Shown here piece after piece: positions 13,700 through 34,699 of a stretch of DNA of 64,000 nucleotides (positions are counted from its first letter, which is position 1; every line of letters begins with the position of its first letter). The stretch spans positions 32,745,028-32,809,027 of the forward strand of contig NC_087064.1 of NCBI RefSeq assembly GCF_963678635.1, given 5' to 3'. Both the position numbers and the translations under genes were made by a program. The stretch is from Symsagittifera roscoffensis (lineage: Eukaryota). Below the pieces are notes generated by a model that saw only the letters and a program-made list of their open reading frames with translations, was not told the origin of the DNA and did no database searches.

Positions 13700-13890
13700 A
13701 TATAAATATGCTTCGGAATCAGAACAAACTGTTATACTGAGTAAACAAGGATTTTATCTAATCAGACATATACTTCATTTTTGCTTCAAATATTTGACAG
13801 CTTAAAAATGACAGCACAAGAGTTTGCTCTGATTCCGAAGCATATTTATGTCTGATTAGATAAAATCCTTGTTTACTCAGTATAACAGCT
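13700..13890. repeat. Rearranged inverted repeat. Blocks X (aaatatgcttcggaatcagaacaaact) and Y (gttatactgagtaaacaaggattttatctaatcagacata) are followed about 45 bp later by their reverse complements in the order X' Y'.
   Basis: A direct read of 13700-13775 versus 13815-13890 shows this. Confidence 0.6.
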
Positions 13891-14061: not shown

Positions 14062-14812
14062 TTAACTTGGATTCAATTGTACCATGTGTTGCAGAATGGA
14101 TGATTTTTCGCGTTCATTTGTGATGGGTGATGCCTTATCTAATGGTAAATAGAAAATTGACGGACCAGGTGTTATTATGTTTGAACAGTATCTCAGACAG
14201 TCTGATGTTCGGGGATCTAAGTCTATTAATAGATGTCCAAAGCTGTTTTTGGTAGCCAGTTCATACGATTGTCGTAAAAATTTAGGTGCATTAAGTTGTC
14301 TTCCGAGGTGATCAAGTTGCTGAATATCACGAGATGATTTGAATAAAATTATGTGAGATGTGTTCAAATCAATAGTTCGTGACCATCGACTTTGTTGGAA
14401 TGAATTATGTTTGACATAAATAACATCTAAGCCTTTGTGTCTTCCTGCTGTTGCTAGTTTAACGAATTCTTCATCATTGTATATTTCTTCGCATGAGTCA
14501 TCAAACACTAACAGAATGTTTTCAATGTTTCTCAAACGATCGAATCCATCAAATTTGACAAATTCGATTTGAATTCTGCCAGCGTTCCTCGTCCCTAAGT
14601 ATAGGTTGAATATCTTTGTAAAAAAATAATACTCTTCCAAATTTTGGATAAAAAGTTCTCACTTTCAATAATTTGAAAATTAATTCTGTTTTTCCTGATC
14701 CCGAAGGTCCTACAACTGCCATAAACAGTCTTGTCGACATATCAATAATTCTATTTGTATCCTTGGGTTTGGTAACTCGTACCCAACTAAACCAGACAAT
14801 ATGGAAAACCAA
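14062..14812 (-). pseudogene. FtsK/HerA-superfamily (A32/IVa2-like) DNA-packaging ATPase, with a frameshift between the Walker A and Walker B parts.
   Basis: ORF 14549..14812 has the Walker A motif AVVGPSGSGKTELIFKLL. ORF 14062..14640 has the Walker B-like motif NILLVFDDSCEE and continues to KHNSF..SR. Confidence 0.55.
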
Positions 14813-17516: not shown

Positions 17517-18900
17517 ATGTCTGAAGCTACAGGACTTGTGGGTTATTGCAAGGGTTCATTGTTTTCAGGTTTTGGTGGAAGTCTTTTTGATGCCCCCTCA
17601 GAATCATCATCTAGAGAGCCGCTACGTGGTAGGTATCAGCCACTTTCTGGATGTCGTGTTGCTACGGGTGAACCACCATTAATGGGAACATCTATGGCAC
17701 CGCCACAGCCACCAATTTATGAAGGAGGTCCTTTTGGTGCCCCCTCACAACCTTCCTCTGGAGCACCGCTATTTGGGGGACCTCCGCCACCTCCTGGAGG
17801 CGGTCTTTTTGGTGCCCCCTCACAACCATCTTCTAGCGCGCGCCTATTTGGGGGACCTCCGCCACCTCCACCTCCTGGTGGAGGTCTTTTTGGTGCTTCC
17901 TCACAACCATCCTCTGGCGCGCGGCTATTTGGGGGACCTCCGACACCTCCTGGAGGAGGTCTTTTTGGTGCCCCCTCACAACCATCCTCTGGCGCGCGGC
18001 TATTTGGGGGACCTCCGCAACCTCCTGGAGGAAGTCTTTTTGGTGCCCCCTCACAACCATCCTCTGGCGCGCGGCTATTTGGGGGACCTCCGCCACCTCC
18101 TGGAGGAGGTCTTTTTGGTGCCCCCTCACAACCATCATCTAGCGCTCGGCTATTTGGGGGACCTCCGCCACCTCCTGGTGGAGGTCTTTTTGGTGCCCCC
18201 TCACAACCAGCCTCTGGAGCGCCGCTAATTGGGGGACATCTGCCACCTCCTGGAGGAAGTCTTTTTGGTGCCCCCGCACAACCATCATCTAGCGCTCGGC
18301 TATTTGGGGGACCTCCGCCACCTCCTGGAGGAGGTATTTTTGGTGCCCCCTCACAACCATCTTCTAGCGCGCGCCTATTTGGGGGACCTCCGCCACCTCC
18401 ACCTCCTGGTGGAGGTCTTTTTGGTGCCCCCTCACAACCATCCTCTGGCGCGCGGCTATTTGGGGGACCTCCGCCACCTCCTGGAGGAGGTCTTTTTGGT
18501 GCCCCCTCACAACCATCTTCTAGCGCGCGCCTATTTGGGGGACCTCCGCCACCTCCACCTCCTGGTGGAGGTCTTTTTGGTGCTTCCTCACAACCATCCT
18601 CTGGCGCGCGGCTATTTGGGGGACCTCCGCCACCTCCTGGAGGAGGTCTTTTTGGTGCCCCCTCACAACCATCCTCTGGCGCGCGGCTATTTGGGGGACC
18701 CCCGCAACCTCCTGGAGAAGGTCTTTTTAGTGCCCCCTCACAACCAGCCTCTGGAGCGCCGCTATTTGGGGGACCTCGGCCACCTCCTGCTGGAGGTATT
18801 TTCGGTTCTGCTCCTCGGCCGCCATCTCTGTTGTTAATGCCCATATCTCCGCCACTTTCCCCCTCTTCTCCTATTCTATTTGACGACTGTTGTTTTTCAG
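17517..18900 (+). CDS. Putative first coding exon of a host gene. It encodes an N-terminal FG-containing segment, then about 14 copies of a 25-aa GLFG/Pro-rich repeat (GGPPPPPGGGLFGAPSQPSSGARLF).
   Basis: A 468-aa ORF starts at ATG 17517. Degenerate in-frame repeat copies occur at both ends. Candidate acceptors tttctttgtttcag/tttcag lie at 17301-17326. A cag|gtattt donor at 18900/18901 leaves phase 1. That phase is exactly completed by the next exon at 19303. Caveat: the repeat unit is stop-free in all six frames, so ORF length alone is not evidence. Confidence 0.45.
17745..18800. repeat. 75-bp GC-rich tandem repeat, about 14 units.
   Basis: Periodic cctccgccacctcctggaggaggtctttttggtgccccctcacaaccatcctctggcgcgcggctatttgggggac. 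ORFs are open on both strands in several frames. Confidence 0.9.
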
Positions 18901-19302
18901 GTATTTTAAGATCTGAATTTTGAAATGATCCATAAAAAATAATACGAAATATTAAAATTTACTGGGAATACTACTGCTTGTTTCAGATGAAAAAGAAAAT
19001 ATTTTGTTAAATATGGTCGCTGAAAGTTTCATATGTTTGAGAAAAATTTAAAAATTTCGTTAAACATGCTCGTAAAATTAATCACACTGTTGGAGGAAGT
19101 AAGTATTTCAAAAACCTGATTTTTTCCATTCCGAAATTTCAGTGTACCATATGCATTTTCTCATAGTTGTAAGTCTAAATCACGATTCTAGAGTGTCACG
19201 ATGCTGAGCAGGCTTTCTAACGAGGTCTAAATGGGCAATGCCAATAAAATGTTTTTTTTTTAAATATGATTGTTGTGTTTTACTCAGACAAATGTTTTTC
19301 AG

Positions 19303-20853: not shown

Positions 20854-20970
20854 GCTGAAACTGGAGATGAATCGGAATCGGACGATGACAACGGTTTCGG
20901 TCTGTTTGACAATGGCGATCGTATGCAAGAAAATAGAAAAGAGGCGACACTGCGAAAGGCGACGTCTGAT
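20854..20970 (+). CDS. Cassette exon copy 1 (117 bp, 39 codons): AETGDESESDDDNGFGLFDNGDRMQENRKEATLRKATSD.
   Basis: Acceptor ttttgtttccag and donor gat|gtgagt. The frame is open, phase 0 to phase 0. Confidence 0.5.
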
Positions 20971-21049
20971 GTGAGTTTTAATGTCACTTTTCGCGTCAAG
21001 TTTGTTCAGATTTGATGAATGTAGTTAAGATTTTTATAGAGGTCATTGT

Positions 21050-21440
21050 AGTTTTTTTTTTCAGGAAAAGTATTAATATTGTTCAGGCTCAAATTAACGT
21101 TTTTGTGGTTTGACTTTGGATTTATTTTAAGTTTCGTTCCTTTCTTTTGTTTAAAGCAGGCAAACTCTGCAAACGAATAGCAAAAGTGTAAAGGATACGG
21201 AAACCTGATCGACTTATTTTCCCGAAAATGAGTTTTAGTTAACACATTTTCCAGAAAAATAAAAATAATAATGCATTGAGTCGTTTTCTAAAATTGGGTT
21301 AGTTTTAATCAAAAAGTATCAATCATAAATTCGAAAAGCTTTCAGGTCATCTTTTTTCTCTGAAACTTGAAAGTTGACGTGTTTTCGAAAAGCCAGTCAG
21401 TATTTTTTCCTTGTGTTCATTGACTCTTTGGCATGCAACA
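21050..21440 (+). repeat. Copy of the 400-bp repeat family inside the duplicated exon-intron unit.
   Basis: ttcaggaaaagtattaatattgttcaggctcaaattaacg ... aaagttgacgtgttttcgaaaagccagtcagtattttttccttgtgttcattgactctttggcatgcaacaactg. Confidence 0.55.
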
Positions 21441-21661
21441 ACTGATGCATTATTAGCGGCGCTAAAACCCTGATTTTCTCTTGAATGTTTTGTTTGCCGG
21501 AATAATCATTCAGACAGTTTTCAAGGCTTGACGAAGGCTTGACAGAAAGTCGTTAAAACTAATGAATTATTTTCTTCATTCAACAATCGTATTTACTGCG
21601 ACAATGCTACCTTATCGCGATACGAACTAGAGGTAGGTGGAACATCTAGTTTTGTTTTCAG

Positions 21662-21778
21662 GATGAAAGTGAAGATGAATCGGAATCGGACGATGAAACA
21701 TGTTTCGGTTCAATTGACAGTGGCGATCGCATGCAAGAAAAAAGTAAAGAGGTGACACTGCGAAAGGCGTCGCCTACA
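21662..21778 (+). CDS. Cassette exon copy 2 (117 bp): DESEDESESDDETCFGSIDSGDRMQEKSKEVTLRKASPT.
   Basis: Acceptor tttgttttcag and donor aca|gtgagt. Open frame, phase 0 to phase 0. It is a paralogue of 20854-20970, with mostly conservative substitutions. Confidence 0.5.
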
Positions 21779-21839
21779 GTGAGTTGAAATGTCTCTTTTC
21801 ACGTCAAGTTTGTTCAGAGTCAATGAACGTAGTTGAGAA

Positions 21840-22150
21840 TTTTATATAGGTCTGGATAGTTTTTTCAGGAACGTGATCCACCTATTTTTGCGAAAATGAG
21901 TTTTAATAAACAGATTTCCCAGCGAAAAAAAATAATGTTTTGATCCGTATTCTCAATTTGGGTAGTTTTAAACCAAAAAAGTATCAAATTTAAATTGTTT
22001 AAGAAAATTAAAAAGCTTATCTGTTATCTCTAAGAAGTTATCTATTTTTCCTCTAAAACTCAAAAGTTGAGGTTTTTCAAAAATCCCTCAGTTTTTTTTT
22101 TCATTTCGTTCACTGGCTCTTCTCGAACTAGCTGTTGCCTGTGTATACTT
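21840..22150 (+). repeat. Copy of the 400-bp repeat family (5'-truncated). Its 3' half is included in the left arm of hairpin 1.
   Basis: ggaacgtgatccacctatttttgcgaaaatgagttttaataaacagatttcccagcgaaaaaaaataatg ... ttcactggctcttctcgaactagctgttg. Confidence 0.5.
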
Positions 22151-22920
22151 AAAAAATTAAAATTAAATTTTAATGAGAACATCCAATGCCTTCTTACCCT
22201 GTGCTTAACTAGGGTGTTACTCCAGAGTGCTAGTTTTTTTTTCGAAGTAAACAAGTTTTGGCGTAGCAACGACCCGGAGACTCCAAATTAATTCAGCTCA
22301 ACGGGTAGATTAGTAAACTAGTTGAAGATTTCAAAAGATCGAAATGGATAATGTTTCTAGAAAGGTTCGACCAACAAGAGGCAACAAGTAAACTCCGGTC
22401 AACTGTGAAAGGACTATCGAACACAATGGGTGTGTTTCTGAGTTTTGGCGTTTGTGTTCGATAGTCCTTTCACATTTGACCAGAGTTTACTTGTTGCCTC
22501 TCGTTGACCGAAACTTTCTAGAAACATTATCCATTTCGATCTTTTGAAATCATCAACTAGTTTTTTAATCTTCACGTTGAGCTCAATTATTTTGGAGTCT
22601 CCGGGTTTTTGCTATGCCAAAACTTGTTCACGTCGAAAAAAGACTAACACTCTGGAGCAACACCCTTGTTAAGCACAGGGGAAGAAGGCATTGGATGTTC
22701 TCATTAAATTTTATTTTTAACTTTCTAAGTATACACAGGCAAGAGCTAGTTCGAAAAGAGCCGGTGAACGAAACGAAAAAAAAAACTGACTGGTTTTTTA
22801 AAAAACCTCAACTTTTGAGTTTAAGAGGAAAAAGAGATAACTTTTTAGAGATAACAGATAAGCTTTTTAACTTTCTTAAACAATTTAAAATTGATACTTT
22901 TTCGATTTAAAACTACCCAA
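21950..22920. repeat. Long hairpin (inverted repeat 1). Arms of about 490 bp (21950-22438 and 22452-22920) at about 90-95% identity flank a 25-nt loop tgggtgtgtttctgagttttggcgt.
   Basis: The reverse complement of 22452-22920 aligns to 21950-22438. Mirror ORFs 22060..22269(-) and 22614..22910(+) encode near-identical peptides. Confidence 0.85.
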
Positions 22921-22924
22921 ATTG

Positions 22925-23345
22925 ACTACATATTGGACTTGATTGCATCTTCGAAGAATTTCAATAAAGCATTTCAATTGTTTCAATTCCAAGTTGTTTG
23001 ATCTTGCGTATAACTTCCTTCTTTCTTTTTTCGATGTTGCTATGGTGTGTAGTGAACTGTTGGTTGCATTTGTCGCAGATCTTTTGTGTGTCATGTAGGA
23101 GTTCATTGTCAAAGATAATGGTTGTGTTTCTGAGTTTTGGCGTTTATCTTTGACAATGAACTCCTACATGACACACAAAAGATCTGCGACAAATGCAACC
23201 AACAGTTCACTACACACCATAGCAACATCAAAAAAGAAAAGAAGGAAGTTATACGCAAGATCAAACAACTTGTAATTGAAAGAATCGAATTGTTTTATTG
23301 AAATTCTTCGAAGATGCAACAAGTCCAATATGTAGAACAAATGGA
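22925..23345. repeat. Hairpin (inverted repeat 2). Arms of about 190-210 bp (22925-23117 and 23133-23345), unrelated to hairpin 1, flank the loop tggttgtgtttctgagttttggcgt.
   Basis: gttcattgtcaaagataa|tggttgtgtttctgagttttggcgt|ttatctttgacaatgaac. The outer arms are ttgattgcatcttcgaagaatttcaataaa ... and ... ttattgaaattcttcgaagatgcaacaagtcc. Confidence 0.85.
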
Positions 23346-23937
23346 TTGGTCCTGACAACTTGCATCAATCCATTTACATTTTTTTTTAGTAAATACGCAG
23401 TCAAGTACTTCAGCCAACTGACAAGCCTCTCACTTAGTAATGCATTAATAGTTGGAAGGGTTATTTTCCTAGCTATTTTCCTTGTATTACTCTCTCCAGT
23501 AGCAAAACTTGTCGAGCGTTTGTTAGCACCGGATATTTTTTGCAACATAAACCTTCCAAGAATGCCAATGGCTTGAAAGAAAGATTAACCACTGCCCTGA
23601 ACTGCATTTTTTTTTAAATTGGTCTGAACCAGGCTAAACCATGTCAGAGAACACTAGTGGTCGCCCTAGACTTGACAACTGGTACACTGTGATCTCATTA
23701 TCAGCGGCGTCAAAACCCTGAATTTTTCTTGATTGTTTTGTTTTTTGGAATAACAATTCATAAGACTTTCATGGCTCGACCATGTAAGAAATTTAATCAT
23801 GATGCACAGTATTTTCTCCGACAGAAAACCTTTAGAACCAATGAAACATGTTATTAAATCAATCGTATATACCTCGACAATGTTAAGTTATCATAATACG
23901 AACTAGAACTAGGTGGAACGCCGAGTTTTGTTTCCAG

Positions 23938-24054
23938 GGTGAAAGTGGAGATGAATCGGAATCGGATGATGACGACGGTTTCGGTCTGTTTGACAATGGC
24001 GATCGTATGCAAGAAATTAGAAAAGAGGTGACAGTGCTAAAGGCGACGTTTGAA
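23938..24054 (+). CDS. Cassette exon copy 3 (117 bp): GESGDESESDDDDGFGLFDNGDRMQEIRKEVTVLKATFE.
   Basis: Acceptor ttttgtttccag and donor gaa|gtgagt. Open frame, phase 0 to phase 0. Confidence 0.5.
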
Positions 24055-24129
24055 GTGAGTTTTAATCTCGCTCTTCACGTCAAGTTTGTTCAGAGTCGAT
24101 GAACGTAGTTAGGATTTTTATGTAAGTTA

Positions 24130-24520
24130 TGATAGTTTTTTAGGAGAAGCAATAAATTTTGTTCAGGCTCAAATTTACGTTTTCGTGTTTTGACTTTGGA
24201 ATTAATTTAACTTCGGTTCCTTTCTTTTGTTAAAAGGAAGGCATACTCTGCAAGCGAATAGCCAAAGTGAAAGGTTACGAAAACATGATAAACCTATTTT
24301 TCCGAAAATGATTTTTAGTTATCAGATTTCCCAGCAAAAAATAACGTATGGAGTCGTTTTCTGAAATTGGATTAGTGTTAATCAAAATGCATCAATCATA
24401 AGGTGTTAAAGAACTTCAGAAAGTTTTCAGGTCACCTTTTTTCTCTGACACTTAAAAGTTGACGTGTTTTCAAAAAGCCAGTCAGTATTTTTTTACTTGC
24501 GTTCATTGACACTTTGGCAT
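24130..24520 (+). repeat. Copy of the 400-bp repeat family (third exon-intron unit).
   Basis: taggagaagcaataaattttgttcaggctcaaatttacg ... ccagtcagtatttttttacttgcgttcattgacactttggcatgcaacaactg. Confidence 0.55.
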
Positions 24521-25764
24521 GCAACAACTGATGCACTATCAGCACATTATCAACGGCGCTAAAAACCCTGATTTTCTCTTGAAAGTTTTGCTTGCCGGAC
24601 AATGTTTACTAATATTTTATTAGTATTTACGCAAGTGAGCTTGCGAGCATTGTGTTATAATGCGAGTCAACTTTCGCTGCATAATTTTGGCAGTCCAATA
24701 GAATTAGTTTTCCGCTTTATCAGTGGCTAGTGTATCTATTTTTATTTATATTGGGTCATGTATCACAGTTGTGTAGCTTGTCGACTTGGATGATCCAGGC
24801 TTGTGGTGCAACTCCTGTAGAGAGCACTGATTCAGTTTTTAAATCTTTTTTGAGCTATTTCTCTGCGTTTTGTTGATTTCTTGCTTGCCTTTTTTGAGCT
24901 ATTTCTTGGCTCCGCCTCTGTGTTTTTTGCTAGTGTATCTTGCTCGGGATTTCTGAGCTGGAATCTCGTTGCCTCAGAAGTTTTATATTGTGAAATTGAT
25001 GTGGTATTTTTTAAATTACTTGCGAATCCTTTTTCCCCGTTTTTGGAGCTAGTTTTTTCCGAGTAGGCTTTGTTACTGCTTTGTAAGTTTTAGTATGTTG
25101 TTAATTTATCATTAAATTGTTTGACTTTACTTTTTGCTCAATGTGATTTTTTCTCAATCCAATTCGAGACAAACATATAAAAATTTTGCTAGATAAGTTT
25201 CTTGACATAATTTCAAAAAATATTCGACTTAGCGGCTTACGTCTTATCTTCTGTCGGCTAGTTTGCCGTGCTAATTTTATGTTGTATCGCAAACATAAAA
25301 AATAGCACGGCAAACTATTTCTATGTTGTATCTGTAAAAATCCAGCTCTCATGCTTGAAATGTCGAATGATATGTTTCTTGAATTATTGAGATATTGAAT
25401 TTGGTAATATAATTGATTATGCTATATGATATTTTTGCTAATCAGAAGCGGGACTATTATTGACTTTCTACCTAGGATTTTCAACAAGTAAAACGTTTGT
25501 TGGTCTTGTCTGCTTTAAATGAAATTTGAATCTGGATTGATTACCATAAGTCAATTTGGTTCATATAAAACGTGAGGATCTTTTTATGCAACCTTGTTAA
25601 ACCCTTGTTTACAGCGTGAAATGTTAAGTGCGGGGAGATACGAAGAAAAATGAGCCAAAAGTGTTAGAACAAGAGCTGTAGAACTTTTTCGGTGATTCAA
25701 TCATTTCTGCTACTCTCATATGAACATTGCTATTTGTTGCCGGAACATTAAGTTCTGTTTTCAG

Positions 25765-25959
25765 TCTGACAGTGTGGAAGAATCAGTTGTGAGGAAAGAT
25801 TTCACCCCCTACTCAGACCCACGCTGCCAATATGACCTCGACTTTGATCTGTTTGGGGACCTGGAAGCTGAATGTGCCCTCGAAGCTCTCCCTAGTCGAA
25901 AGAAAGTTTACTGTCGTAAAAACAAATTAAAAACAAATTGTATTGTTATCCAACGTTAG
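25765..25959 (+). CDS. Putative terminal coding exon: SDSVEESVVRKDFTPYSDPRCQYDLDFDLFGDLEAECALEALPSRKKVYCRKNKLKTNCIVIQR, then a stop.
   Basis: Acceptor gttctgttttcag at 25753-25764 gives a phase-0 start, compatible with the cassette exons. It ends at an in-frame stop. It contains another D-F-D-L-F-G acidic motif. Confidence 0.4.
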   Translation, partial: SDSVEESVVRKDFTPYSDPRCQYDLDFDLFGDLEAECALEALPSRKKVYCRKNKLKTNCIVIQR

Positions 25960-26749
25960 TCTATATTTGCCCCAAAACCGCCATCCATACCTAAACTGCG
26001 CAAAACTGATTAACAACTAGATTAAAAATACAATTAAGAAAAATTTTACAGCGAAAGCTAGATCAAATCTTCTGATCAGCCGTAGAAATCGATTTAGGGG
26101 GATATAATACCGGTTTTTCAGAATTTAACTTAGAAGGTAAAATAGAGTCTTTTCTATTATACGACCCAAACTTCATTGTTTTGATATAATGAAAACTGGA
26201 TCATAATGCTTTATTATGATTGGATGAAATTAACAAATACGAAGGAAATCTGAACCTTAATTTCAAATACATTAGCTCAATTTACGTTTTTGTGATATTG
26301 GGCCACACAACAGGAAAGACGCGCAAAATAAGATGATCTAATAAATAAAATTTAAAAAAATCGAAACAGAATTATGAATAAAATGGGGCCTAGGAAATAG
26401 CTATTCCATGTGAAAGTTTTTATGAAGCACTATTTTTTGCGCGCTTGTTTGAAATGATTATTTTATGCGTAATCTTTTTTCAAAATTATTACAACGCAAA
26501 GGGGAAATAACTCTTAGGAGGCAAAGATAACACTTAGGAGGAGAGATACAAATTATCAACAAGCTGTTTTTCATAAAATGAGTAATTTTTCTATAATTTT
26601 TTCTTATTTGTTTCAGATCCCAAGAGTATGGATGGGCTGAATTTGAGGCCGAAGAAGAATCCGAATACCAGGCTACAAAAACATTGACGAAGTTCGTTTG
26701 ATTTCTAAATGTTAATTTTTAATTTATCTTTCATTTAGGTCAGGTGTTT

Positions 26750-27163
26750 TTTTCCAGAGTTTTGTTCATGCTGATTTTTGAGTCTTCGCGGTCCCTTCTG
26801 ATTTCTCTTCAAGTTCAGTGATATTGTTTTGCTAATTGGAGGGAAAAGTACACACTTCAATTACGAAAAAGCAAAAGGCGCGAGAAATGTGTTTCACTTG
26901 TAAGCTCGAAGTTCGGACTTTAGTTTTGAGGTTTCCCAGCGGATTAAGAAATTAGTTATCGATCCAGTTTTCCGAAGTTGTGTTGAGAAAAGGAAAAAAG
27001 TTCAATCATAAGAGAGTGTTGAATACAAATGATCTTTATTTTATTACATATTTTTGCTCCGAAATTTGAAAAAAATTAACAAAGTCCATTTTTTGGTTTC
27101 CTTGTTAATTAACACTTTTCCAATTATCTTACGGCTATGTTTTTCAACTATCTGACGGCTATA
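26750..27163 (+). repeat. Copy of the 400-bp repeat family. Its tail abuts the poly-T end of the LINE.
   Basis: ttttccagagttttgttcatgctgatttttgagtcttcgcggtcccttctgatttc ... aacaaagtccattttttggtttccttgttaattaacacttttccaattatcttacggctatgttttt caactatctgacggctata. Confidence 0.55.
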
Positions 27164-27270
27164 TTTTTTTTAGTTGCACTTGATGCAGCATTTGAAAAGT
27201 CTCTAATGAACTTCCACTTGTGGATCCAGTGGCAACCGCCTTGTTGTTGTTGTTGTTGCCCTTCTGAGAT

Positions 27271-30200
27271 CTATTCGTCGCTCGTTGTTGGGTCCAGGGT
27301 TGTGGGGAGTTTCAGGAATATTGTTGTCTTCTTCGGTTGCTTCCAGAGATCGGCTGGGGTTAAGTTCGTAGGATTTGCGATGCAGTCGAACAGGTGTATA
27401 GTTGTGTGGCTTGTTTGCTGGCAGTCCGGGCAAAGTTCGCTTACTGTCGGGTCAATTCTGTTCATGTACGAGTTCAGGAACTTTGAGTAGCCGGATCTGA
27501 GCTGTGCCAGTGTTCTTCTCGTTGTTCTTGGTAATTCGGTTTCTTCTTTGGCAATTTTTGGTGGATTGTGTCCGAGGACTGCTGGGTGTTCGTAGGTTTG
27601 TAAGGCGTCGCGTACCTCATTTGTGTGGATCGTTTTTAGCAGGTTTCTGTACTTCTTTTCGGTTAGAGGTCTATTGCTGTCGAGTAGAGGTTCAATGTAT
27701 CTTTCTTCATATCGTGTTTGGAGGGTTTCTTTCATGAGTCTTGGTGGGTTCTTGGGTTCTTTCGTGAGTTGGTTTCCTGGGTGATCTGGCAAGTGGTTGG
27801 CGAGATGATGTTGTATCGTTCGCATTCTGAGGTGTCGTCTAACTGGTAGAACGGATGTTTCTTGGTGAAGGTGGTCTATGTGAGTCATGGCGTGGCATCC
27901 GGTGATTGTTCTCAGGGCGCTGTTTTGGACCTTCTGTAGTTTCTCGATGTTGCTTTCGGAGAGTGTGGGCGTTATCACAGCGGCGCCGTACTCAAGTTTA
28001 GTGCGAACAACCGCTTTGTAGGTCATGAGGAGTGTTTCCTTGTCGCTTCCCCAGTCAGTGCCGGCAAGCGCTTTCAGGGCGTTGTTGCGTTGAGAGCATT
28101 TCTTCGCAGTGTCTCTGCAATGGGCCCCGAAAGTGTGCATGGTGTCGAAAGTGATGCCGAGGATCTTCGCTTGGTTGTTCATTCTTATTTGTTCATTGTT
28201 TATCTTCACTTCAGGAACGGTTTTGTATTGGGCTGTCTGTGGTGTCATCAGCGTGACAAAACTCTTGTCAATGGAGATCTGGAGGTTTCGCTCTTCGAAG
28301 AAGTTCACTAGTTCTGCGAGGTACTCCGTTTGTTTTCCTGCCATTGCTGGTATGTCGGTGCCGAGAATGAGGGACGTGAAGTCGTCTGCGTAGGACTTGA
28401 TCTTGATTTCGTCCGGAGGGCTAGGTGCGTCTGCGACGTAGTAGTTGAAAAGGAGTGGCGACAAAACTGATCCTTGTGGCACTCCAAACCGAACTATCCG
28501 TGCTTTTGAGAGAGAGTCGCGAAACAGTGTTCTTGCTTGTCGTCCTTGTAGGAAGTTCGCGAGCCATCTTTTCAGAGCACTGGGCAGACTGGTCTTGTTG
28601 ATGAGGTCGAGGAGCTTGGAATGCTTAACCGTGTCGAAGGCTTTCGACAGGTCAATCGCGACAAGCAGAGTCCTGTCGGCTGGTTTCTTTCTGTTGAAGC
28701 CGTTGGAGATGGCTGTCGTGATGTCACAAAGAGCGGTGACCGTTGAGTGCTTGGACCGGAAGCCGTGTTGGTGACTGGCGAAGTGGAGGTGTTCGGTGAT
28801 GAGAGGTTGGATGCACTTCTCCAGGATCTTCGAGGCTGGGCAAAGCAAGGAGACGGGTCTGTACGAGTTGCTGAGGCCTGCGTCTTTGCCTGGTTTCAGC
28901 AGCGGAATAATGACTGACGACTTCCAAATTGCTGGGATCTGGCATTTGCTGAGCGACAGGTTGAAGATCTTCGTGAGGTAGTTGATAGCATTTGGTCCGA
29001 GGTGTTTCATGTGAGTGGTCGAGATGTTGTCTGGGCCGAATGCTTTGGAGTTCTTCGCGTTCTGTATGGCAGTTTTTACTTGTTTGGAGGTAATGACTGG
29101 GGCGTCGTTGAGAGGTTGTTTCTTTATGTTTCTGTTTATTTTCCTGTTGTCTTTCTCGGTCTTGTGGTTCATTGGTCTTGCGTATTGTATATTGAAAGCG
29201 TTGCTCATACTGCTGGCGTCTTTAATCTGTTTTTCGTTGAATTTTATTCCTTGATTTGGAGGGGCACTTTGTTTCTTTCCTGTGATCGCGCCGATTGTCT
29301 TCCAGAGTTTGGTCACATTGGTTTTTCTGTCGAATGTTGCCACATGCTCTTTCCATTTCTCCATTCTTTGCTTGGAAATGAGGAAGTCTATCCTGGCGTT
29401 CAAGGTCGGAATGTCTTTGGAGTGAGGGTTGTTTCTTCTTGTTTCGTCTCTTTGCTTGATCAGGCGGGAGGCTGCTGGCGGAATGTTGGGCTTGGCTTTG
29501 GGAATGCGTCCGGAGGGAATGTTGTGAGCAGAAGCAGTGTTCAGAATCTTCCTGAAGACTTTCTCTCCGCTGTGGGTGTCAGATGGTTCTTCTTCGCTCA
29601 GAAAGAGTTCTTCTGTTTCCTGTTTGAAGGTATCCCAGTCGGCTCTGCTGAGGTTCACGAAGGTGCGCTTGGGTGCTCTGACTTCTGTGTCCCTCTTCAG
29701 TTCGATCTTCATGGGAAGGTGATCTGAGCCCAGGGTGATCTCTGTTTTCCAGGAGAGGTCGAGAAGCAGGTCGGAGGAGGCCATGCTGATGTCCGGCGAG
29801 GATGGCTGATCTCCTCGTGGGAGGCGAGTTGGGTGGTCCGTGTTGAGGACGCCGAAGGAGGAGTCTTCAATTTCTTCTGCCAGTTCGGAGCCACGGGTGT
29901 CTTCTTGGTTGCTGGAATGCCACAAGGAACTGTGTGCGTTCGCGTCTCCTACCAGGATTGTCTTGCTGCTGGAGAGGAGGTCTTGCAGGGACGCCTTGTA
30001 ACCTTGAGGACAGCTGCTGGAGGGAGGGATGTAGTAGTTGATGATGTTCAATTCAACTTCGTTCATCTTGATGTTGACTCCCTGGACTTCTCTCGTGCCG
30101 TCGTTCTGCTGATCTATGTCCATGGTGTTGAAGTCGACAGTTTCGTGAATGAGGGTCATGAGTCCGCCACCTCCTTGACCACGATCACGTCGGATGGCAG

Positions 30201-30744
30201 TATAGCCAGGGAACTTCGGCGTCTTGTTCCGTTCTTGTAGTTTGGTCTCTTGAAGGGCGGCAACTGTGATCTTCCTTTCTTGTAGGTAGTTGCTGAGCTC
30301 TTTTGCTTTATTCTGTATGCCATTGCAGTTCAGTTGTAGTAGCTTGAACTTCACTTTCTGGGTTTGTCGGGGGGTCTCTGCAGTGCAGGGGGGGCATCTC
30401 CAGTCTGGCTGAGAGAGGTACTCGGCTGTCTTGCGCATGCCGCTGCATTTCAGGTGCATCCATTCTTTGCATTGGTGGCATCTGATTGTCTGTGTTTTCA
30501 TCTGTCGGGAGCAGACTTTGCAGTTGACTTTTTGTGCCGGACCGGGGTTGGGTTCAATACCAGCCATCAGTAGTTGGAGCAGGAGAAGAGAGGCTGGCGT
30601 TGTCTTCTCCACTACCAAAAACCCGGGTTGAGTGACGAATAGGGTCCCTTTCTGGGAAGTCTGTCGCTGTTGCGGCAGGATTGGCACCATTTGCTCCAGT
30701 TGGAGACGAATCCACCACGAGTAGCCGGTTGCCACTGGATCCAC
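27271..30744 (-). CDS. LINE ORF encoding an EN-RT polyprotein. Order: 2A-like motif, a C4HC3 PHD-like finger (CKVCSRQ..CHQCKEWMHLKC..CPPC) and an APE/EEP endonuclease (LQLNCNGIQNK…LQETKL). Then RT (FGPDNIS…LLVAIDLSKAFDTV…FGVPQGSVLSPLLFNYYVAD…YADDFT), a C-terminal KLQKVQNSALRTITG block and a CPDC…H…C motif.
   Basis: Motifs read directly from the translated ORF. The first codon in the ORF track is GTG, so the real start is uncertain. Confidence 0.85.
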   Translation of the reverse strand: MDPVATGYSWWIRLQLEQMVPILPQQRQTSQKGTLFVTQPGFLVVEKTTPASLLLLQLLMAGIEPNPGPAQKVNCKVCSRQMKTQTIRCHQCKEWMHLKCSGMRKTAEYLSQPDWRCPPCTAETPRQTQKVKFKLLQLNCNGIQNKAKELSNYLQERKITVAALQETKLQERNKTPKFPGYTAIRRDRGQGGGGLMTLIHETVDFNTMDIDQQNDGTREVQGVNIKMNEVELNIINYYIPPSSSCPQGYKASLQDLLSSSKTILVGDANAHSSLWHSSNQEDTRGSELAEEIEDSSFGVLNTDHPTRLPRGDQPSSPDISMASSDLLLDLSWKTEITLGSDHLPMKIELKRDTEVRAPKRTFVNLSRADWDTFKQETEELFLSEEEPSDTHSGEKVFRKILNTASAHNIPSGRIPKAKPNIPPAASRLIKQRDETRRNNPHSKDIPTLNARIDFLISKQRMEKWKEHVATFDRKTNVTKLWKTIGAITGKKQSAPPNQGIKFNEKQIKDASSMSNAFNIQYARPMNHKTEKDNRKINRNIKKQPLNDAPVITSKQVKTAIQNAKNSKAFGPDNISTTHMKHLGPNAINYLTKIFNLSLSKCQIPAIWKSSVIIPLLKPGKDAGLSNSYRPVSLLCPASKILEKCIQPLITEHLHFASHQHGFRSKHSTVTALCDITTAISNGFNRKKPADRTLLVAIDLSKAFDTVKHSKLLDLINKTSLPSALKRWLANFLQGRQARTLFRDSLSKARIVRFGVPQGSVLSPLLFNYYVADAPSPPDEIKIKSYADDFTSLILGTDIPAMAGKQTEYLAELVNFFEERNLQISIDKSFVTLMTPQTAQYKTVPEVKINNEQIRMNNQAKILGITFDTMHTFGAHCRDTAKKCSQRNNALKALAGTDWGSDKETLLMTYKAVVRTKLEYGAAVITPTLSESNIEKLQKVQNSALRTITGCHAMTHIDHLHQETSVLPVRRHLRMRTIQHHLANHLPDHPGNQLTKEPKNPPRLMKETLQTRYEERYIEPLLDSNRPLTEKKYRNLLKTIHTNEVRDALQTYEHPAVLGHNPPKIAKEETELPRTTRRTLAQLRSGYSKFLNSYMNRIDPTVSELCPDCQQTSHTTIHLFDCIANPTNLTPADLWKQPKKTTIFLKLPTTLDPTTSDE
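30538..30591 (-). other. 2A-like ribosome-skipping motif, LLLLQLLMAGIEPNPGP, at residues about 53-69 of the LINE ORF.
   Basis: The reverse complement of 30541-30582 reads ctg ctc caa cta ctg atg gct ggt att gaa ccc aac ccc ggt. This fits D(V/I)ExNPGP with D changed to G, and is preceded by a hydrophobic helix-like stretch. Confidence 0.5.
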
Positions 30745-30861
30745 AAGTGGAAGTTCATTAGAGACTTTTCAAATGCTGCATCAAGTGCAACTAAAAAAAA
30801 AAAAAAAAAAATATAGCCGTCAGATAGTTGAAAAACATAGCCGTAAGATAATTGGAAAAGT

Positions 30862-30960
30862 GTTAATTTTTTTTTTTTTTTTTTTTTTGGTTTCCTTGTT
30901 AATGAACAAAGTCCATTTTTTTTTTTTTTTTTTTTTGGTTTCCTTGTTAATGAACTTCCA
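30862..30960. repeat. Two tandem units of T20+ggtttccttgttaatgaac(aaagtccat), related to the 400-bp repeat tail.
   Basis: tttttttttttttttttttttggtttccttgttaatgaacaaagtccat tttttttttttttttttttttggtttccttgttaatgaacttccacttcaatg. Confidence 0.7.
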
Positions 30961-31954
30961 CTTCAATGAATTCTTCGCTCTTACGGTCAAAATTTTTTTG
31001 TGATGGGTAGGTAAACTCAATCAAATTAGAGCTGAGCCCAAAAATACGTCAGTCATGTGAATCAACCTATTATCATTTAAAAATGGTATTGCGATTTTCT
31101 GAGAATCGAAAATTATGCATTGCGATGTATCTGCGTTCTTGCTAATTTTCATTTAGCGATGTGAAGGTACTCAATTAGGTCTTGTCGTTTTTTAGATAAA
31201 ATTTCTAGTGTACGCTTGAATATATTCTTTTGCGGTTCGACTTCATATTTTTTCAAGTACACTTCAAATTCAGTTGCCAAATTGTATGCAATATTCGCTT
31301 TCCAACAACTTACGGGATCACTTAAGTGTCAAGCACTGAAATTTTTTTTTAAATAAAGATGAAAAGATGAGATTTATTTTTTCTGCAATGTGATTTATTT
31401 TTTTGATTGAATTTCGAAAGTTGAATAAATCAATAAAAGTCCTTTTTCCATTTTTTTTCACCTCATTGACAATTTTCCAACTGTTGGCTATGTTGTGTCC
31501 TTTCGGAAATTCGCATGATTCAGGAATGTAAATCTTGCAAAAAGCCGAAAAGCATCATGGAGATTTAGACTACTCTCCAGGTTTGCGTTTTTCTAATTCA
31601 AGTCTCTTGAGTTGAAATATCAATTTAATGTAGTATTTAAAAGATTTGTCATTCATTTAAAATATTTTTTGTTGATTGACTGAAAACTCTAGTTTCATGT
31701 TAACTTAAGGTCAAATTTAACTTAAATTTCTTTGCCCTAGCCCGCTATGAGTGGAACGACGTTAATCTAGTCGCCCTTATGGGCGTGTTTTAGCTTGTAT
31801 ATGTAGATTGACAAAAACATTAGATATATCTTTTCTAATTTTCTGCCTTCGTAAATGCTAGTTATAAAATCATTGTTATGTTTTTAAGATGCCTTTTTCT
31901 TAGCGAAATTTTCAATGCTACGCAAACAGCACTAGGGTACTGAGAAAAATAGTA

Positions 31955-32095
31955 TTCGTAAAGGTTTACTAAAGGATTCGTAAATTTTGAGTGATGATTT
32001 TTTAACACTTGCGATCGTAATGTTTTCGTAAAGGTTTAGTAAAGGATTCGTAAAGTTTGAGTGATGATTTCTTTTTACACTTGCGATCAGCGTTT
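31955..32095. repeat. Tandem duplication of a unit of about 70 bp (ttcgtaaaggtttactaaaggattcgtaaattttgagtgatgatttt..acacttgcgatc).
   Basis: Two adjacent near-identical copies. Confidence 0.8.
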
Positions 32096-32214
32096 TGTAT
32101 TACAACGAACCTTTTTTCTATCCTAAATCGCAAATAAATTGTTCACTGAAATTATTCATCTATATGGAGATTTCACTGAAGCATTAGAAATTTCTTAGCG
32201 TGTCCTCTGCTTTA

Positions 32215-32450
32215 TTTTGGCTAGTGTTTGTCATCAATTAAGCGTCCGTGGCTGTGTCGTTAGTGCGTCATATTTATTATCTCTCGGTCGCAGTAGGCCG
32301 TAGGTTTGAATCCGAGACCTAGCCGAATTTTTACTAATTTGAGGCTGGTTTCTGCTTATTCTTATTGCACTTTATAGAGCTGCTTTTTGTCGTGTTCTAG
32401 CTAGTGTTTGCGAAGCACAGCTTCGCCTCTGTGTGAATTCGCCATTCAAA
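32215..32450 (+). repeat. tRNA-derived SINE-like element (possibly Feilai-like), plus the start of a second copy.
   Basis: gctagtgtttg … tggctgtgtcgttagtgcg (A-box-like) … ggtttgaatccgagacc (B-box-like, GGTTCGANTCC with one mismatch). The start motif gctagtgtttgcgaagc..cgcctctgtg recurs at 32395 and 34465. Confidence 0.35.
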
Positions 32451-34699
32451 AATATTTTCAAAGTGGAACCTAAATTACGCTTTCTGATTGTCGAATATGT
32501 TGTTCTGTTTGAGTCATTCTGTTTTCTGTTTCAGTCGCACGGAATATTGCAGCATGCAAAGCCAAATTCGCCAACGTATCGACATTCCTGAAAAAGAAAA
32601 TCAAACCAAGTCTGCTAGCTTTTTCTGTCCACGTCATCTTGCAGAAGTGCCTTTCGTTCTTAAGGTTTGTTTTTTTTCGAACATTAATTCCAACCTCGCT
32701 TAATTTTCAATATTTTTCCACGTTTTAAAGCTTTTCGTTGTGTTTTAGATGTCTTCAGACATAGGTAGGTTTAACTTTTTGTGAATTCAAACTCTAAATA
32801 GTTAATACTGCTTCTGCTTGAAGGCTCAGATCGCTAAAAATCACTGAAAATGTCATGATTTGATTCATTCTTCAATATAGCTCTATTTACACAACCGAAG
32901 CGTGGTGTATTATTACGAAGTTTTTTTCAAACCTAAGTCGCAAACAAAAGCGCTCATTGGTGGCACTTTTGGTATTTTTCAATTTAATTTTTTTAAGCGT
33001 AGGCAATTTAATAGCATATGTTGAGGCTAGTGCAAGGTCTTGTCGAAATCAATAGGTATTATGAAAATGTATGGGATGTGATGTTTTTTGCGAGGCTCTG
33101 GAAAATTATTATTTTTTTTCGCAATTTTTTTTTCCCAAAAACAACTAACCCGATTTTCAAAAAAAAATGGTACCAATGAACAAACTGGCGGCTTTTTTTA
33201 TGTGCCTGCATATTTTTCTAGTCCATATTTATTTTACTCCACGTTCTACGGCCTTCGATGGGACGGGCCTTCGACTTCTAAAATTTGGGACAGGTGTTTT
33301 TGACCTATTTGTTTTTTTTTGTTTTTGTGAAACATTAAATGCGCAAATATACGATGAACGTTTCAATCAAAATAACAAATCATAGAGATCCCCCTTCTTA
33401 GGCGGCTATTCCCTAATTTCGGTAGACAGAAAGTTATGGCCACAAACATACCCTTTTTTGACATTTTTAATTTGTTTTTAAATTTTGAGACTTTTCTCAA
33501 AAACTACCCTACCAAATCGGAGATTTAGGTTTGAATCGAATGAAAAAAAAATGTGAATCTTACCTGAGCGGCTATGCCTTATATTTTCAAAAAATTATGG
33601 CCTTAGAAAATGTCCAATTTTTTTTTGAAATTTTGCCAGTTTTCTTGGAAACTTATTCTGTTTTTTTAAACTCACCCGCTGATTCCGAGGTTGTTTCTTC
33701 GTTAATATCTTTCATCCTATTTTTAGAAAATCCGATAAGGTTATCGCAAAAATCCATTTTTGAAATTTTTACTGTTTTTTTTTCATGAAAGTTACCAGCT
33801 ACATCTGATATTAAGGGTTCAATCTCAAAATCAGGGTGTGAAAGTCTTCTTGCATAAGATGCTATTCGCATGCTTTATTAGAAAAGTTAATGGATTTAGG
33901 AACAGTCAATTTTTACTATAAGATTCCAAGAAACGATCAAATATTGTAAAAAATGACTGTTCCTAAATCCATTCTTTCATTTTTTGGACAAATACCCAGA
34001 CAAATCTGAGATAAAGAATTCAGTTGAAAGTTCGAATAGACGGCTACTCCACTACTTAAGAAACTACTCCACAAAAATTTTGAAACTTTGGAAATTACTC
34101 ATTTCGTTATCAGTACAATCGAAGATTGAAATATTAAAACAGGTGCATCCAGCGTTAGCTGGGCCACTAGTTTACCTCCAACCGACCGTGGCGCAAATGT
34201 GAGGACGTGAAACTCCTAATCAACAGGTGGGAGATTCAAATCGGGAAGATTGAAATAATTTTTTTGGTCGAATTTTTGTTGCATAGCGTTGGCAATTTGA
34301 TAAGATCCTGCAGCTGCTTTATTGATGGCTAGTGTAAGTAAAGTGGAGCAGATGTGAGAAGGTGTTACTCCTCATCTCAGCAAAAAAATTTCCGTAGGTG
34401 TATTTTTAATTTTTTCGTTTTCCTGATCTCGTTTTGTTTTGCCTGTTCAGAGCTCTTTTTTGAATTTTCCTGGCTTGTGTTTGCGAAGCGCTGCTCCGCC
34501 TCTGTTCAAATTGCATTTCTATTTTGTTACTCGGACCGACATGGATAGTTATAATAAATAACCTAAAGACCAAGTTGTAAAAAAATAGGCATGTTGAAAC
34601 TTTGCTTGCCGGTTTTTTGTAACTACAGACACCAACGGAAAGTTTTGTGTTCAGTTTTGTTTTTTAAAAGAATCGATGAACGTAGTTCAGACTCTTTTA

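Follow-up and report, generated by a model that had tools for sequence, protein, structure and literature searches.

Introduction

Inverted duplications with a short non-palindromic spacer are known as products of break repair. At HO breaks in yeast, fold-back inversions of 2 to about 150 bp, mostly under 35 nt, have been described, and these involve a 10-bp imperfect inverted microhomology and a 41-nt loop, NHEJ completing the repair with homology of 0-5 bp (PMC11724301). SD-MMEJ and the extension of stem-loops by Pol theta constitute a comparable break-repair fold-back system (PMC5728401, PMC11292364), and Pol theta can extend stem-loops from just 2 terminal base pairs (PMC11292364). Breaks made by the L1 ORF2p endonuclease also yield inverted duplications at their ends, with 2-bp homology, a duplication between the two breakpoints and fold-backs that can lack any retroelement insert, the 3' overhang self-annealing through about 2 bp of homology (bioRxiv 10.1101/2024.12.14.628481). 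Breakage-replication/fusion of staggered ends is a related system (PMC12807874).

Here, two abutting hairpins with a common loop are described from an intron in a 64-kb stretch of DNA, the whole of which was analysed and is referred to as the window. The hairpins are probably an old, neutrally decaying scar of one break, each end of which copied its own flank backwards before the two were rejoined.

Results

Two hairpins equivalent to one insertion

The overall layout of the locus is a-L-rc(a)|b-L-rc(b), where rc denotes the reverse complement (Table 1). The arms of hairpin 1 are 474 nt long and differ by 41 substitutions and 2 gap columns (about 91% identity), which refines the ~490 bp and ~92% given for this hairpin in the initial annotation; its figure of about 200 bp for the arms of hairpin 2 agrees with the 193 nt measured, at 95.3% identity. 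The two had correctly been called adjacent, and the distance of up to 5 bp between them is now reduced to 0 nt, arm 1 ending at 22925 and arm 2 starting at 22926. This junction contains neither filler nor microhomology, is the same in both haplotypes examined and matches the signature of end joining, i.e. 0 to a few bp of homology and no long homology. The loops are identical at 24 of 25 positions, as first reported, and have the same orientation in the window. The stems are indeed unrelated, except that the claim that they share no sequence fails for the 10 nt beside each loop, where 7 of 10 positions are alike (TCGAACACAA vs TCAAAGATAA, P about 0.006). Furthermore, AA...TT immediately borders L in both hairpins.

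Table 1. Features of the double hairpin and the exons that bound its host intron (window coordinates).
Feature	Position	Strand	Basis or remark
Cassette-exon copy 2	21662-21778	+	117 nt, AG...GT flanked; upstream boundary of host intron
a, hairpin 1 left arm, original copy	21953-22426	+	aligns with 22452-22925 as well as with the repeat copies at 21292-21428 and 24437-24514
Last 10 nt of a, TCGAACACAA	22417-22426	+	imperfect inverted repeat with TTATCTTTGA (23144-23153)
Loop L1, TGGGTGTGTTTCTGAGTTTTGGCGT	22427-22451	+	25 nt; non-palindromic, no structure by itself; same in diverged haplotype
rc(a), hairpin 1 right arm, inverted copy of a	22452-22925	+	only a truncated repeat tail, hence derived copy
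Blunt junction between distal ends of both inverted copies	22925-22926	.	direct sequence reading
b, hairpin 2 left arm, inverted copy of d	22926-23118	+	presumed derived copy
Loop L2, TGGTTGTGTTTCTGAGTTTTGGCGT	23119-23143	+	25 nt; G-to-T relative to L1
d = rc(b), hairpin 2 right arm	23144-23335	+	putative original, continuous with 23336 onward
Cassette-exon copy 3	23938-24054	+	117 nt, open (translation); downstream boundary of host intron

Taken together, the two hairpins amount to one contiguous insertion of 692 nt, rc(a)+b+L, flanked by a 25-nt direct repeat, into a presumed a-L-d sequence. Because the hairpins abut exactly and sum to one insertion with 25 nt directly duplicated, both loops are explained by a single event at a single site. 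The view that a conserved loop with independent stems points to a templated event is upheld, whereas the small element or recombination signal that had been offered as its cause is unnecessary, since one insertion event suffices and the motif did not recur in the DNA searched.

The left arm is local DNA

The structure lies where it was first placed, between cassette-exon copies 2 and 3 of a + strand FG-nucleoporin-like gene with GT-AG introns; on translation, copies 1 and 3 share a reading frame in which copy 2 is disrupted by a frameshift and a stop. A repeat of ~400 bp is present at 21000-21428, 21808-22121 and 24084-24514, and part of it had been recognised within the left arm. The first ~170 nt of arm a (21953-22121) are the 3' tail of the copy at 21808-22121, in register with the upstream sequence, and the remainder (22122-22426) is unique sequence. 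Arm a thus continues the local repeat in register while rc(a) has only the truncated tail, which identifies a as the original, duplicated on the spot rather than imported.

A Pfam search of nine ORFs in and around the arms returned nothing at the curated cut-off, and no coding homology was found in the arms. A 54-aa ORF in arm d is coding-like, yet it is interrupted by a stop in the other haplotype, and a 95-aa ORF across the boundary of arm d and its flank has only allelic matches among 5.8 billion proteins, the organism's own contigs included. The surrounding region is rich in transposons; a polyprotein with DUF1759 and RT was seen together with an integrase, the domains resembling those of a BEL/Pao-type element. 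Along with the FG-nucleoporin-like gene and its GT-AG introns, these proteins point to an animal.

One or two foldback or MITE-type transposons with a family-specific central motif would have long terminal inverted repeats around a short centre much like those seen here, and would be at home in such a region. The continuity of the left arm with the upstream repeat copy nevertheless marks it as local DNA, no target-site duplication flanks the hairpins, neither arm has another copy within the 64-kb window and the 95-aa ORF has no match beyond its own alleles, which makes a transposon origin scarcely credible. Nor is the loop part of a known foldback-element consensus that includes both stems, as the initial annotation had allowed it might be.

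The structure is older than the haplotype split

The same structure is present in four contigs from at least two assemblies, three of these being further contigs from two other assemblies. L001/L003 are 99.7% identical to the window overall and 100% identical in the hairpins, L002 is 100% identical to the window, and L010 is a haplotype about 5.6% diverged that has the same junction and 15 of the same arm-specific variants. One sign of difficulty is that contig L010 stops 23 nt before hairpin 1, hence the region is hard to assemble. However, a fold-back produced by a chimeric read would be near-perfect, whereas these arms are 4-9% diverged, and the recurrence of junction and variants in a diverged haplotype leaves an artefact of assembly or chimeric reads with virtually no chance of being the explanation. 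All four contigs carry both hairpins, and no pre-event a-L-d allele was found among them by exact-protein look-ups.

Of the 474 positions in hairpin 1, 15 (3.2%) carry arm-specific variants that the two haplotypes have in common, and in the outer, unhomogenised part of hairpin 2 the same holds for 3 of 107 (2.8%); the arms themselves have diverged by 8.7% and 7.5%, respectively. Both hairpins look the same age, and the structure has a single origin and is older than the haplotype split.

The inner 86 nt of hairpin 2 are identical between its arms, i.e. homogenised, in comparison to the outer 107 nt that carry the 7.5% divergence. The G-to-T change in L2 is a derived SNP of the window's haplotype, and in L010 loop 2 is the exact reverse complement of L1, which indicates that the arms recombine. 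Inter-arm recombination in hairpin 2 has homogenised the inner half and flipped the loop in one haplotype. Because loop orientation flips, the common orientation of the loops in the window is not firm evidence. Furthermore, the loop is no better conserved than expected under neutrality, with three of four loop copies identical where 1-2 differences are expected.

The arms decay neutrally

As parts of an intron in a + strand gene, both hairpins would be transcribed, and the predicted RNA fold of the structure is a near-continuous duplex of -964 kcal/mol. These properties, together with 3 sites in hairpin 2 that changed on both arms between the haplotypes, would suit a selected hairpin-RNA locus (endo-siRNA or hpRNA) whose dsRNA gives rise to small RNAs or controls cassette-exon splicing. 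However, hairpin 1 has 62 single-arm changes between the two haplotypes and 0 paired changes, and the paired changes of hairpin 2 are accounted for by recombination between its arms, a process to which the loop flip testifies. On the transcribed sense strand of hairpin 1, one haplotype has 6 G:U and 15 A:C pairs and the other 13 and 11 (sum 19 vs 26), and over both hairpins the counts are 23 vs 29, so G:U is not favoured. Thus, neither the compensatory-change test nor the G:U vs A:C test gave any sign of selection for pairing in the two haplotypes. Moreover, the arms are devoid of coding homology, their one plausible ORF is stop-broken in the other haplotype, no homologue of an arm that could act as a target was found within the window and loop orientation is not fixed, being flipped in the second haplotype. 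Selection as a hairpin-RNA locus is therefore very doubtful, and the earlier suggestion of such a locus built around a common spacer finds no support in the 62 vs 0 changes, the lack of preference for G:U and a loop that is both neutral and flipped. Inter-arm recombination in hairpin 2 aside, the arms decay neutrally.

Rfam miRNA precursor models were also considered. MIR5998, MIR1882, MIR1883 and others all scored below their gathering thresholds (77 vs 180, 75 vs 107 and 73 vs 128 bits for the three named), and these plant MIR models match both strands equally, indicating a generic response to any long hairpin.

The loop motif has no further copies in the DNA searched

The loop motif (GTGTTTCTGAGTTTTGGCGT) was searched as a 20-mer core, and the unit formed by L with 10 nt on each side is 45 nt long. 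The core occurs just twice in the 64 kb even with 3 mismatches allowed, a number of matches reached by 0/100 shuffles. Apart from these two, the window contains no instance of the motif, and neither ~40 kb of additional DNA from the same organism nor a further LINE locus (L011) contributed one. When JGI metagenome contigs were scanned for exact 20-mer matches, 6 were obtained in 3 unrelated contexts (three near-identical contigs, two identical contigs and a single one), none of the 6 with inverted flanks. By a rough calculation, 6 matches are near the number expected for a 20-mer by chance, and they are treated as such.

These results bear on the proposal of a recurrent small element or recombination signal, either L itself or the 45-nt unit, that seeded two independent inverted duplications of adjoining DNA. 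Near-identical loops within different stems, the likeness of the innermost 10 nt of the stems (7/10) and the inverted loops of L010, which fit the addition of the same sequence to both 3' ends, are all in keeping with such an element. Yet the motif has no other copies in the window or at the other loci examined, the metagenome matches lack inverted flanks and are about as many as chance would give, exact abutment and equal age would be a coincidence if the events were independent and there is no known mechanism, so that this origin, including its exogenous-template variant, is very unlikely. There is an even slimmer chance that L is not native to the locus and that, before fold-back, both 3' ends were extended on an exogenous template of 25 nt, which might have been a small RNA, the end of a retroelement or a mobile mini-element; if so, the inverted loops of L010 would be ancestral, and the locus would represent a new hairpin-seeding process that should recur in the genome.

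A neighbouring LINE is accompanied by a fold-back of its flank

A polymorphic LINE (27220-30745) lies 4 kb away, and the sequence after it is its own target flank in reverse complement together with a target-site duplication of 16 nt. At 27220-30947 this LINE shows the mark of a TPRT-associated inverted duplication, namely a retroelement-derived insert or tail, or a recognisable endonuclease site, at the junction. Members of the local LINE family begin with GTGGATCCAG... at the 5' end and finish with (CAA)n at the 3' end. The hairpins themselves show no such mark: nothing LINE-like lies between the arms and L is unlike the (CAA)n tail of this family.

Discussion

The data allow the construction of a model in which both hairpins would stem from a double fold-back at a single break. 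The ancestor would have been a-L-d, with 21953-22451 joined directly to 23144 onward. A staggered break would have left both 3' ends bearing the 25-nt L; the same starting point would have been reached through a pair of neighbouring nicks, through hairpin capping of both ends or through a transient synapsis with L copied by each end. The top-strand end, ...a-L, would then have folded back and copied 474 nt of its own flank to give a-L-rc(a), while the bottom-strand end would have done likewise over 193 nt to give b-L-d on the top strand, and the two extended ends would have been joined bluntly at 22925|22926. On this model L would be a duplicated overlap, akin to a target-site duplication, and not a signal. 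The fold-back beside the nearby LINE is a precedent for such copying from within the window itself.

Candidate priming sites of the sort that both fold-backs would require are present on either side of L, namely AA...TT and the 10-nt imperfect inverted repeat (P about 0.006), the latter not being the predicted minimum-energy pairing. In the presumed a-L-d ancestor, TCGAACACAA and TTATCTTTGA could pair around L through 7 Watson-Crick pairs and 1 G:T pair, but the predicted ssDNA fold of the reconstructed tail prefers a 6-bp AACACA/TGTGTT mini-hairpin; since folding does not favour the 10-nt inverted repeat, a strong pre-existing stem-loop is not claimed. The weakness of that repeat counts against a double fold-back, as do the presence of the finished structure in all four contigs and the length of the 474- and 193-nt tracts, which exceeds most experimental examples of fold-back. 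In addition, an end overlap of 25 nt or longer would require a staggered break, sister-chromatid ends or a dissociated synapsis. Were the inverted loop arrangement ancestral, a third-party template for L would be needed. Furthermore, an 11-nt stretch of L matches arm a directly and 6 nt are complementary to the end of that arm, and on these matches L may itself be templated filler rather than plain native sequence.

The same product could have been reached by a replicative route that involves no two-ended break. In serial template switching of the FoSTeS/MMBIR type, a nascent strand would extend through a-L, switch to the opposite strand to synthesise rc(a), jump ~0.7 kb to b and return at L into d. 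The resulting topology is the same as that observed, two of the three switches would fall at the borders of L, the site of the short inverted repeat, and the nearby LINE insertion is itself a mosaic of repeated template jumps. Set against this, three switches are required, including a long-range one that would lack microhomology at 22925|22926, and blunt junctions arise more typically through end joining (PMC11724301). Template switching is therefore regarded as unlikely, although sequence alone does not distinguish a two-ended break from a replicative origin.

If repair of a single break by double fold-back is the right reading, the locus illustrates cleanly, and in a naturally fixed form, what two-sided fold-back repair produces, and a-L-rc(a)|b-L-rc(b) provides a simple recognition rule for such scars in genomes. 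It also cautions against reading loops shared between hairpins as signals or designed spacers. Hundreds of bp of intronic dsRNA-forming sequence can arise in a single step, as raw material for hairpin-RNA genes, and within one species recombination inverts short loops enclosed by 193-nt arms. Together with the fold-back beside the LINE, the hairpins hint that retroelement-type staggered breaks are perhaps a regular source of inverted duplication in this organism.

The locus is not a new biological system. ODIRA, or an inverted triplication, was rejected on structure, there being two copies per arm and not three in direct-inverted-direct order. ODIRA and DUP-TRP/INV-DUP structures resemble the locus in having junctions at short inverted repeats and a spacer that becomes a loop; unlike ODIRA, with three copies that share arms and two spacers, the locus has two copies of each of two different arms and one spacer. 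A P-nucleotide or hAT excision footprint was likewise rejected on structure. In such footprints both sides of a break gain a palindromic copy of their own end before being joined, as here, but they comprise a few nt, are loopless and have their axis at the very end, whereas here a non-palindromic loop of 25 nt separates arms of hundreds of nt. Drosophila-type hpRNA and long inverted-repeat siRNA loci, which are sometimes tandem, share with the locus long transcribed inverted repeats and a short loop; unlike these, it has no target homology in the window and no compensatory evolution, and its arms are decaying.

Products of ORF2p and of staggered ends, in the available parts of their accounts, are closer in showing a short duplication between reciprocal breakpoints and an inverted duplication of the flank, and the LINE 4 kb away shows a flank fold-back of the ORF2p type as those parts describe it. 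In contrast to the ORF2p products described there, neither retroelement sequence nor a poly-A or (CAA)n tail separates the hairpins and no endonuclease target motif is definable; the same parts of the ORF2p and breakage-fusion accounts describe no simultaneous fold-back of two ends, whereas both ends are folded here. The likeness to snap-back break repair extends to the inverted copy of break-adjacent DNA, the non-palindromic spacer that serves as loop (41 nt in yeast, 25 nt here), a candidate primer site in the form of a roughly 10-nt imperfect inverted repeat or just 2 nt, and the distal junction with 0-5 bp of homology. In contrast to the yeast fold-backs, both ends of one site are folded, the spacer is duplicated and the two hairpins abut, with tracts of 474 and 193 nt from an event that is ancient and fixed in the germline.

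Structure and genomic context of the paired hairpins

Direct reading and a repeat scan confirmed that two hairpins with a shared 25-nt loop (L) and unrelated stems lie side by side, as the initial annotation had proposed; the stems resemble each other only in the 10 nt beside the loops (7/10 identity, P about 0.006). With a and d as the outer arms and rc as the reverse complement, the + strand order is a-L-rc(a)-rc(d)-L-d, and the hairpins meet at 22925|22926 without gap, filler or shared base.

Positions of the hairpins and related features in the window, except where L010 (the diverged haplotype) is indicated
Feature	Position	Strand	Detail
Hairpin 1 left arm (= a)	21953-22426	+	direct reading and repeat scan
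Hairpin 1 loop	22427-22451		TGGGTGTGTTTCTGAGTTTTGGCGT
Hairpin 1 right arm (= rc(a))	22452-22925		
Hairpin 1 arms			474 nt; 41 substitutions, 2 gap columns
Hairpin 2 left arm (= rc(d))	22926-23118		
Hairpin 2 loop	23119-23143		TGGTTGTGTTTCTGAGTTTTGGCGT
Hairpin 2 right arm (= d)	23144-23335		
Hairpin 2 arms			193 nt; 95.3% identity
Cassette-exon copy 1	20854-20970		
Cassette-exon copy 2	21662-21778		
Cassette-exon copy 3	23938-24054		
~400-bp repeat family copies	760-953, 2395-2785, 5100-5400, 21000-21428, 21808-22121, 24084-24514, 34862-34947		
Polymorphic non-LTR (LINE) insertion	27220-30745	minus	1157-aa ORF with 2A-like GIEPNPGP motif
rc of LINE left target flank, after LINE 5' end	30746 to about 30867		expanded A/T runs
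LINE target-site duplication	27204-27219 = 30932-30947		16 nt
LINE empty site in L010	about 5284-5299		reverse-complement coordinates

The hairpins fall between cassette-exon copies 2 and 3 of a + strand gene whose Nucleoporin_FG region precedes a tandem series of units, each made up of a ~400-bp repeat and a 117-nt cassette exon flanked by AG/GT. Units 1/2 and 3/4 adjoin directly, units 2 and 3 are ~1.55 kb apart (22122 to about 23672), and the hairpins make up most of this spacing. The Nucleoporin_FG match (E = 5e-51) lies in a 468-aa open exon of GLFG/PPPP repeats (17517-18923), which is made of 75-nt and 231-nt tandem units and is open on the opposite strand for 375 aa. Cassette-exon copy 2, 117 nt long like copies 1 and 3, carries a frameshift and a stop in their frame (…DDETMFRFN*) and may be a decayed pseudo-exon. 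The ~400-bp repeat also recurs at other places in the window as a dispersed family, which is probably a small non-autonomous transposon.

The window is eukaryotic DNA rich in transposons. It includes a non-LTR element encoding PHD, endonuclease and RT domains, along with an integrase and a DUF1759 and RT polyprotein that resemble a BEL/Pao-type LTR element. Two adjacent, near-identical gag-pol copies (about 48700-53100 and 56500-59600), read as a BEL/Pao-type LTR retrotransposon, have a 6.9-kb period and identical 24-nt and 76-nt tandem repeats in common; the upstream copy encodes the polyprotein with DUF1759 and RT, and the integrase ORF is nearby (47167-48204). An inverted repeat of two perfectly matching 42-nt arms around a 76-nt spacer (13729-13770 / 13847-13888) sits just downstream of a 192-aa minus-strand ORF (14062-14640) with zero Pfam matches, and an adjacent, overlapping ORF (14549-14812) contains a GPSGSGKT P-loop motif and is a possible Polinton-like packaging ATPase.

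Age and allelic variation

The same locus was recovered from two ENA assemblies by exact-protein look-ups. Across 20.5 kb, an 840-kb contig matches the window at 99.7% identity, with zero differences over 20945-24371, and another contig is 100% identical. L010 represents a second haplotype (94.4% identity over 21930-27219, 99% over 30948-37308) that has both hairpins and the same blunt junction. Haplotype divergence is 5.6% in the hairpin-bearing intron versus about 1% just downstream, and the L010 contig stops 23 nt short of hairpin 1, where the assembly seems to have broken at the palindrome.

Left and right arms were compared four ways across the two haplotypes. In hairpin 1, 15 sites set the left arms apart from the right arms in both haplotypes, therefore the duplication is older than the haplotype split; a further 62 changes are limited to one arm of one haplotype. 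A fold-back assembly artefact is excluded by the 4-9% arm divergence and by the presence of the arms in diverged haplotypes. By appearance the two hairpins are equally old: hairpin 1 and the outer 107 nt of its neighbour, hairpin 2, are similar both in shared arm-specific sites (3.2% vs 2.8%) and in arm divergence (8.7% vs 7.5%). Over its inner 86 nt hairpin 2 has identical arms in the window, and at three positions in that stretch the haplotypes differ on both arms, which together indicate inter-arm gene conversion.

Loop 1 of L010 equals that of the window, but its loop 2 (ACGCCAAAACTCAGAAACACACCCA; 1177-1201 of the reverse-complemented contig, versus window 23119-23143) is the exact reverse complement of loop 1. 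The G-to-T difference in window loop 2 is therefore a derived SNP and the loops began as 25/25 identical, a level compatible with neutrality (1-2 differences expected at 4-9% divergence). Spacer inversion by arm recombination is the classic flip-flop of inverted repeats, and the polymorphic orientation of this 25-nt spacer, flanked by 193-nt arms, means that the arms of hairpin 2 recombine together and invert it. Loop orientation alone thus cannot fix the ancestral arrangement.

Tests for function

The hairpins give no sign of function. In the four-way comparison zero sites in hairpin 1 changed on both arms, and its transition mismatches show no preference for G:U, the type that sense RNA tolerates, over A:C (window 6 vs 15, L010 13 vs 11). 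ORFs in the arms matched zero Pfam families above cut-off and the most coding-like is interrupted in L010; on both strands the only Rfam hits were generic long-hairpin models scoring below threshold. As RNA the region is predicted to fold into two near-continuous duplexes (-964 kcal/mol), and incidental dsRNA from the intron is plausible on that model.

The core of L occurs at only two sites in 64 kb, allowing up to three mismatches (two matches in 0/100 shuffles). Half-loop searches returned nothing above chance, and six matches to the core in a JGI metagenome pattern scan were judged chance. The last 11 nt of L (AGTTTTGGCGT; 22441-22451) recur in direct orientation in arm a at 22253-22263, a match equalled by only 1.6% of random window 25-mers, so L may itself be patchwork filler templated in an earlier or the same step at the site. 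Nucleotides 5-10 of the loop are complementary to the final bases of arm a.

A probable two-sided fold-back origin

Arm a runs on in register from the repeat copy at 21808-22121 and rc(a) has only the last ~170 nt of that repeat, therefore a is the original and its copy was made from local DNA. This points to a putative ancestor a-L-d (21953-22451 joined directly to 23144 onward) in which the novelty is a single contiguous 692-nt block, rc(a)+rc(d)+L, or equivalently an insert between 25-nt direct duplications of L that consists of both flanks copied backwards. The earlier view that a shared loop with unrelated stems marks a templated event is borne out, whereas a loop acting as signal or designed spacer is not supported, given that one event would explain both loops, that the arms decay neutrally and that the L core has just two occurrences in 64 kb.

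In the proposed mechanism a single L lay between a and d, both ends of one lesion would have carried L, each would have folded back at the L border and copied its own strand, and the two extended ends would then have been ligated; the end overlap of at least 25 nt could have come from staggered nicks, hairpin-capped ends, sister ends or dissociated synapsis. On either side of L, the inferred ancestor would have AA...TT together with TCGAACACAA / TTATCTTTGA (7 Watson-Crick pairs and one G:T), and the predicted fold of the reconstructed tails prefers a 6-bp AACACA/TGTGTT stem over the 10-nt inverted repeat. The direct loop arrangement is treated here as the ancestral one, since a break at a single L would produce it, as would one end taking its copy of L from the other; inverted loops would call for a template from a third party. 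On balance, the hairpins probably record a single ancient two-sided fold-back rearrangement, the shared loop being the duplicated overlap, followed by neutral decay and, in the shorter hairpin, recombination between the arms. The same structure would also result from three successive template switches in a purely replicative process, and with this variant counted in the reading becomes distinctly more likely.

Comparison with known fold-backs

In yeast, the fold-back inversions that arise at HO breaks span 2 to about 150 bp. Priming there occurs at an imperfect inverted microhomology of 10 bp whose loop is 41 nt, Pol delta carries out the synthesis, and NHEJ captures the product using 0-5 bp of homology (PMC11724301). 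For Pol theta, two terminal base pairs are enough to extend a stem-loop (PMC11292364). One study describes inverted duplications at L1 ORF2p-induced breaks with 2-bp homology and duplication between reciprocal breakpoints, as well as fold-backs without any L1 insert (bioRxiv 10.1101/2024.12.14.628481), and another accounts for adjacent and overlapping breakpoints and fold-backs by staggered ends (PMC12807874).

The window has a fold-back precedent of its own in the LINE insertion (27220-30947) absent from L010, in which the inverted flank is followed by mosaic direct pieces of the left target flank and then the target-site duplication. A further 21 nt at its 3' junction (27220-27240) repeat the LINE's own 5' end in inverted form. 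Another copy of the family, at locus L011, has plain ends; its target-site duplication is 11 nt long, and it lacks the flank fold-back, the mosaic pieces and the 21-nt extra. On the favoured reading, the paired hairpins are a variant within a class of repair scar that is already known.
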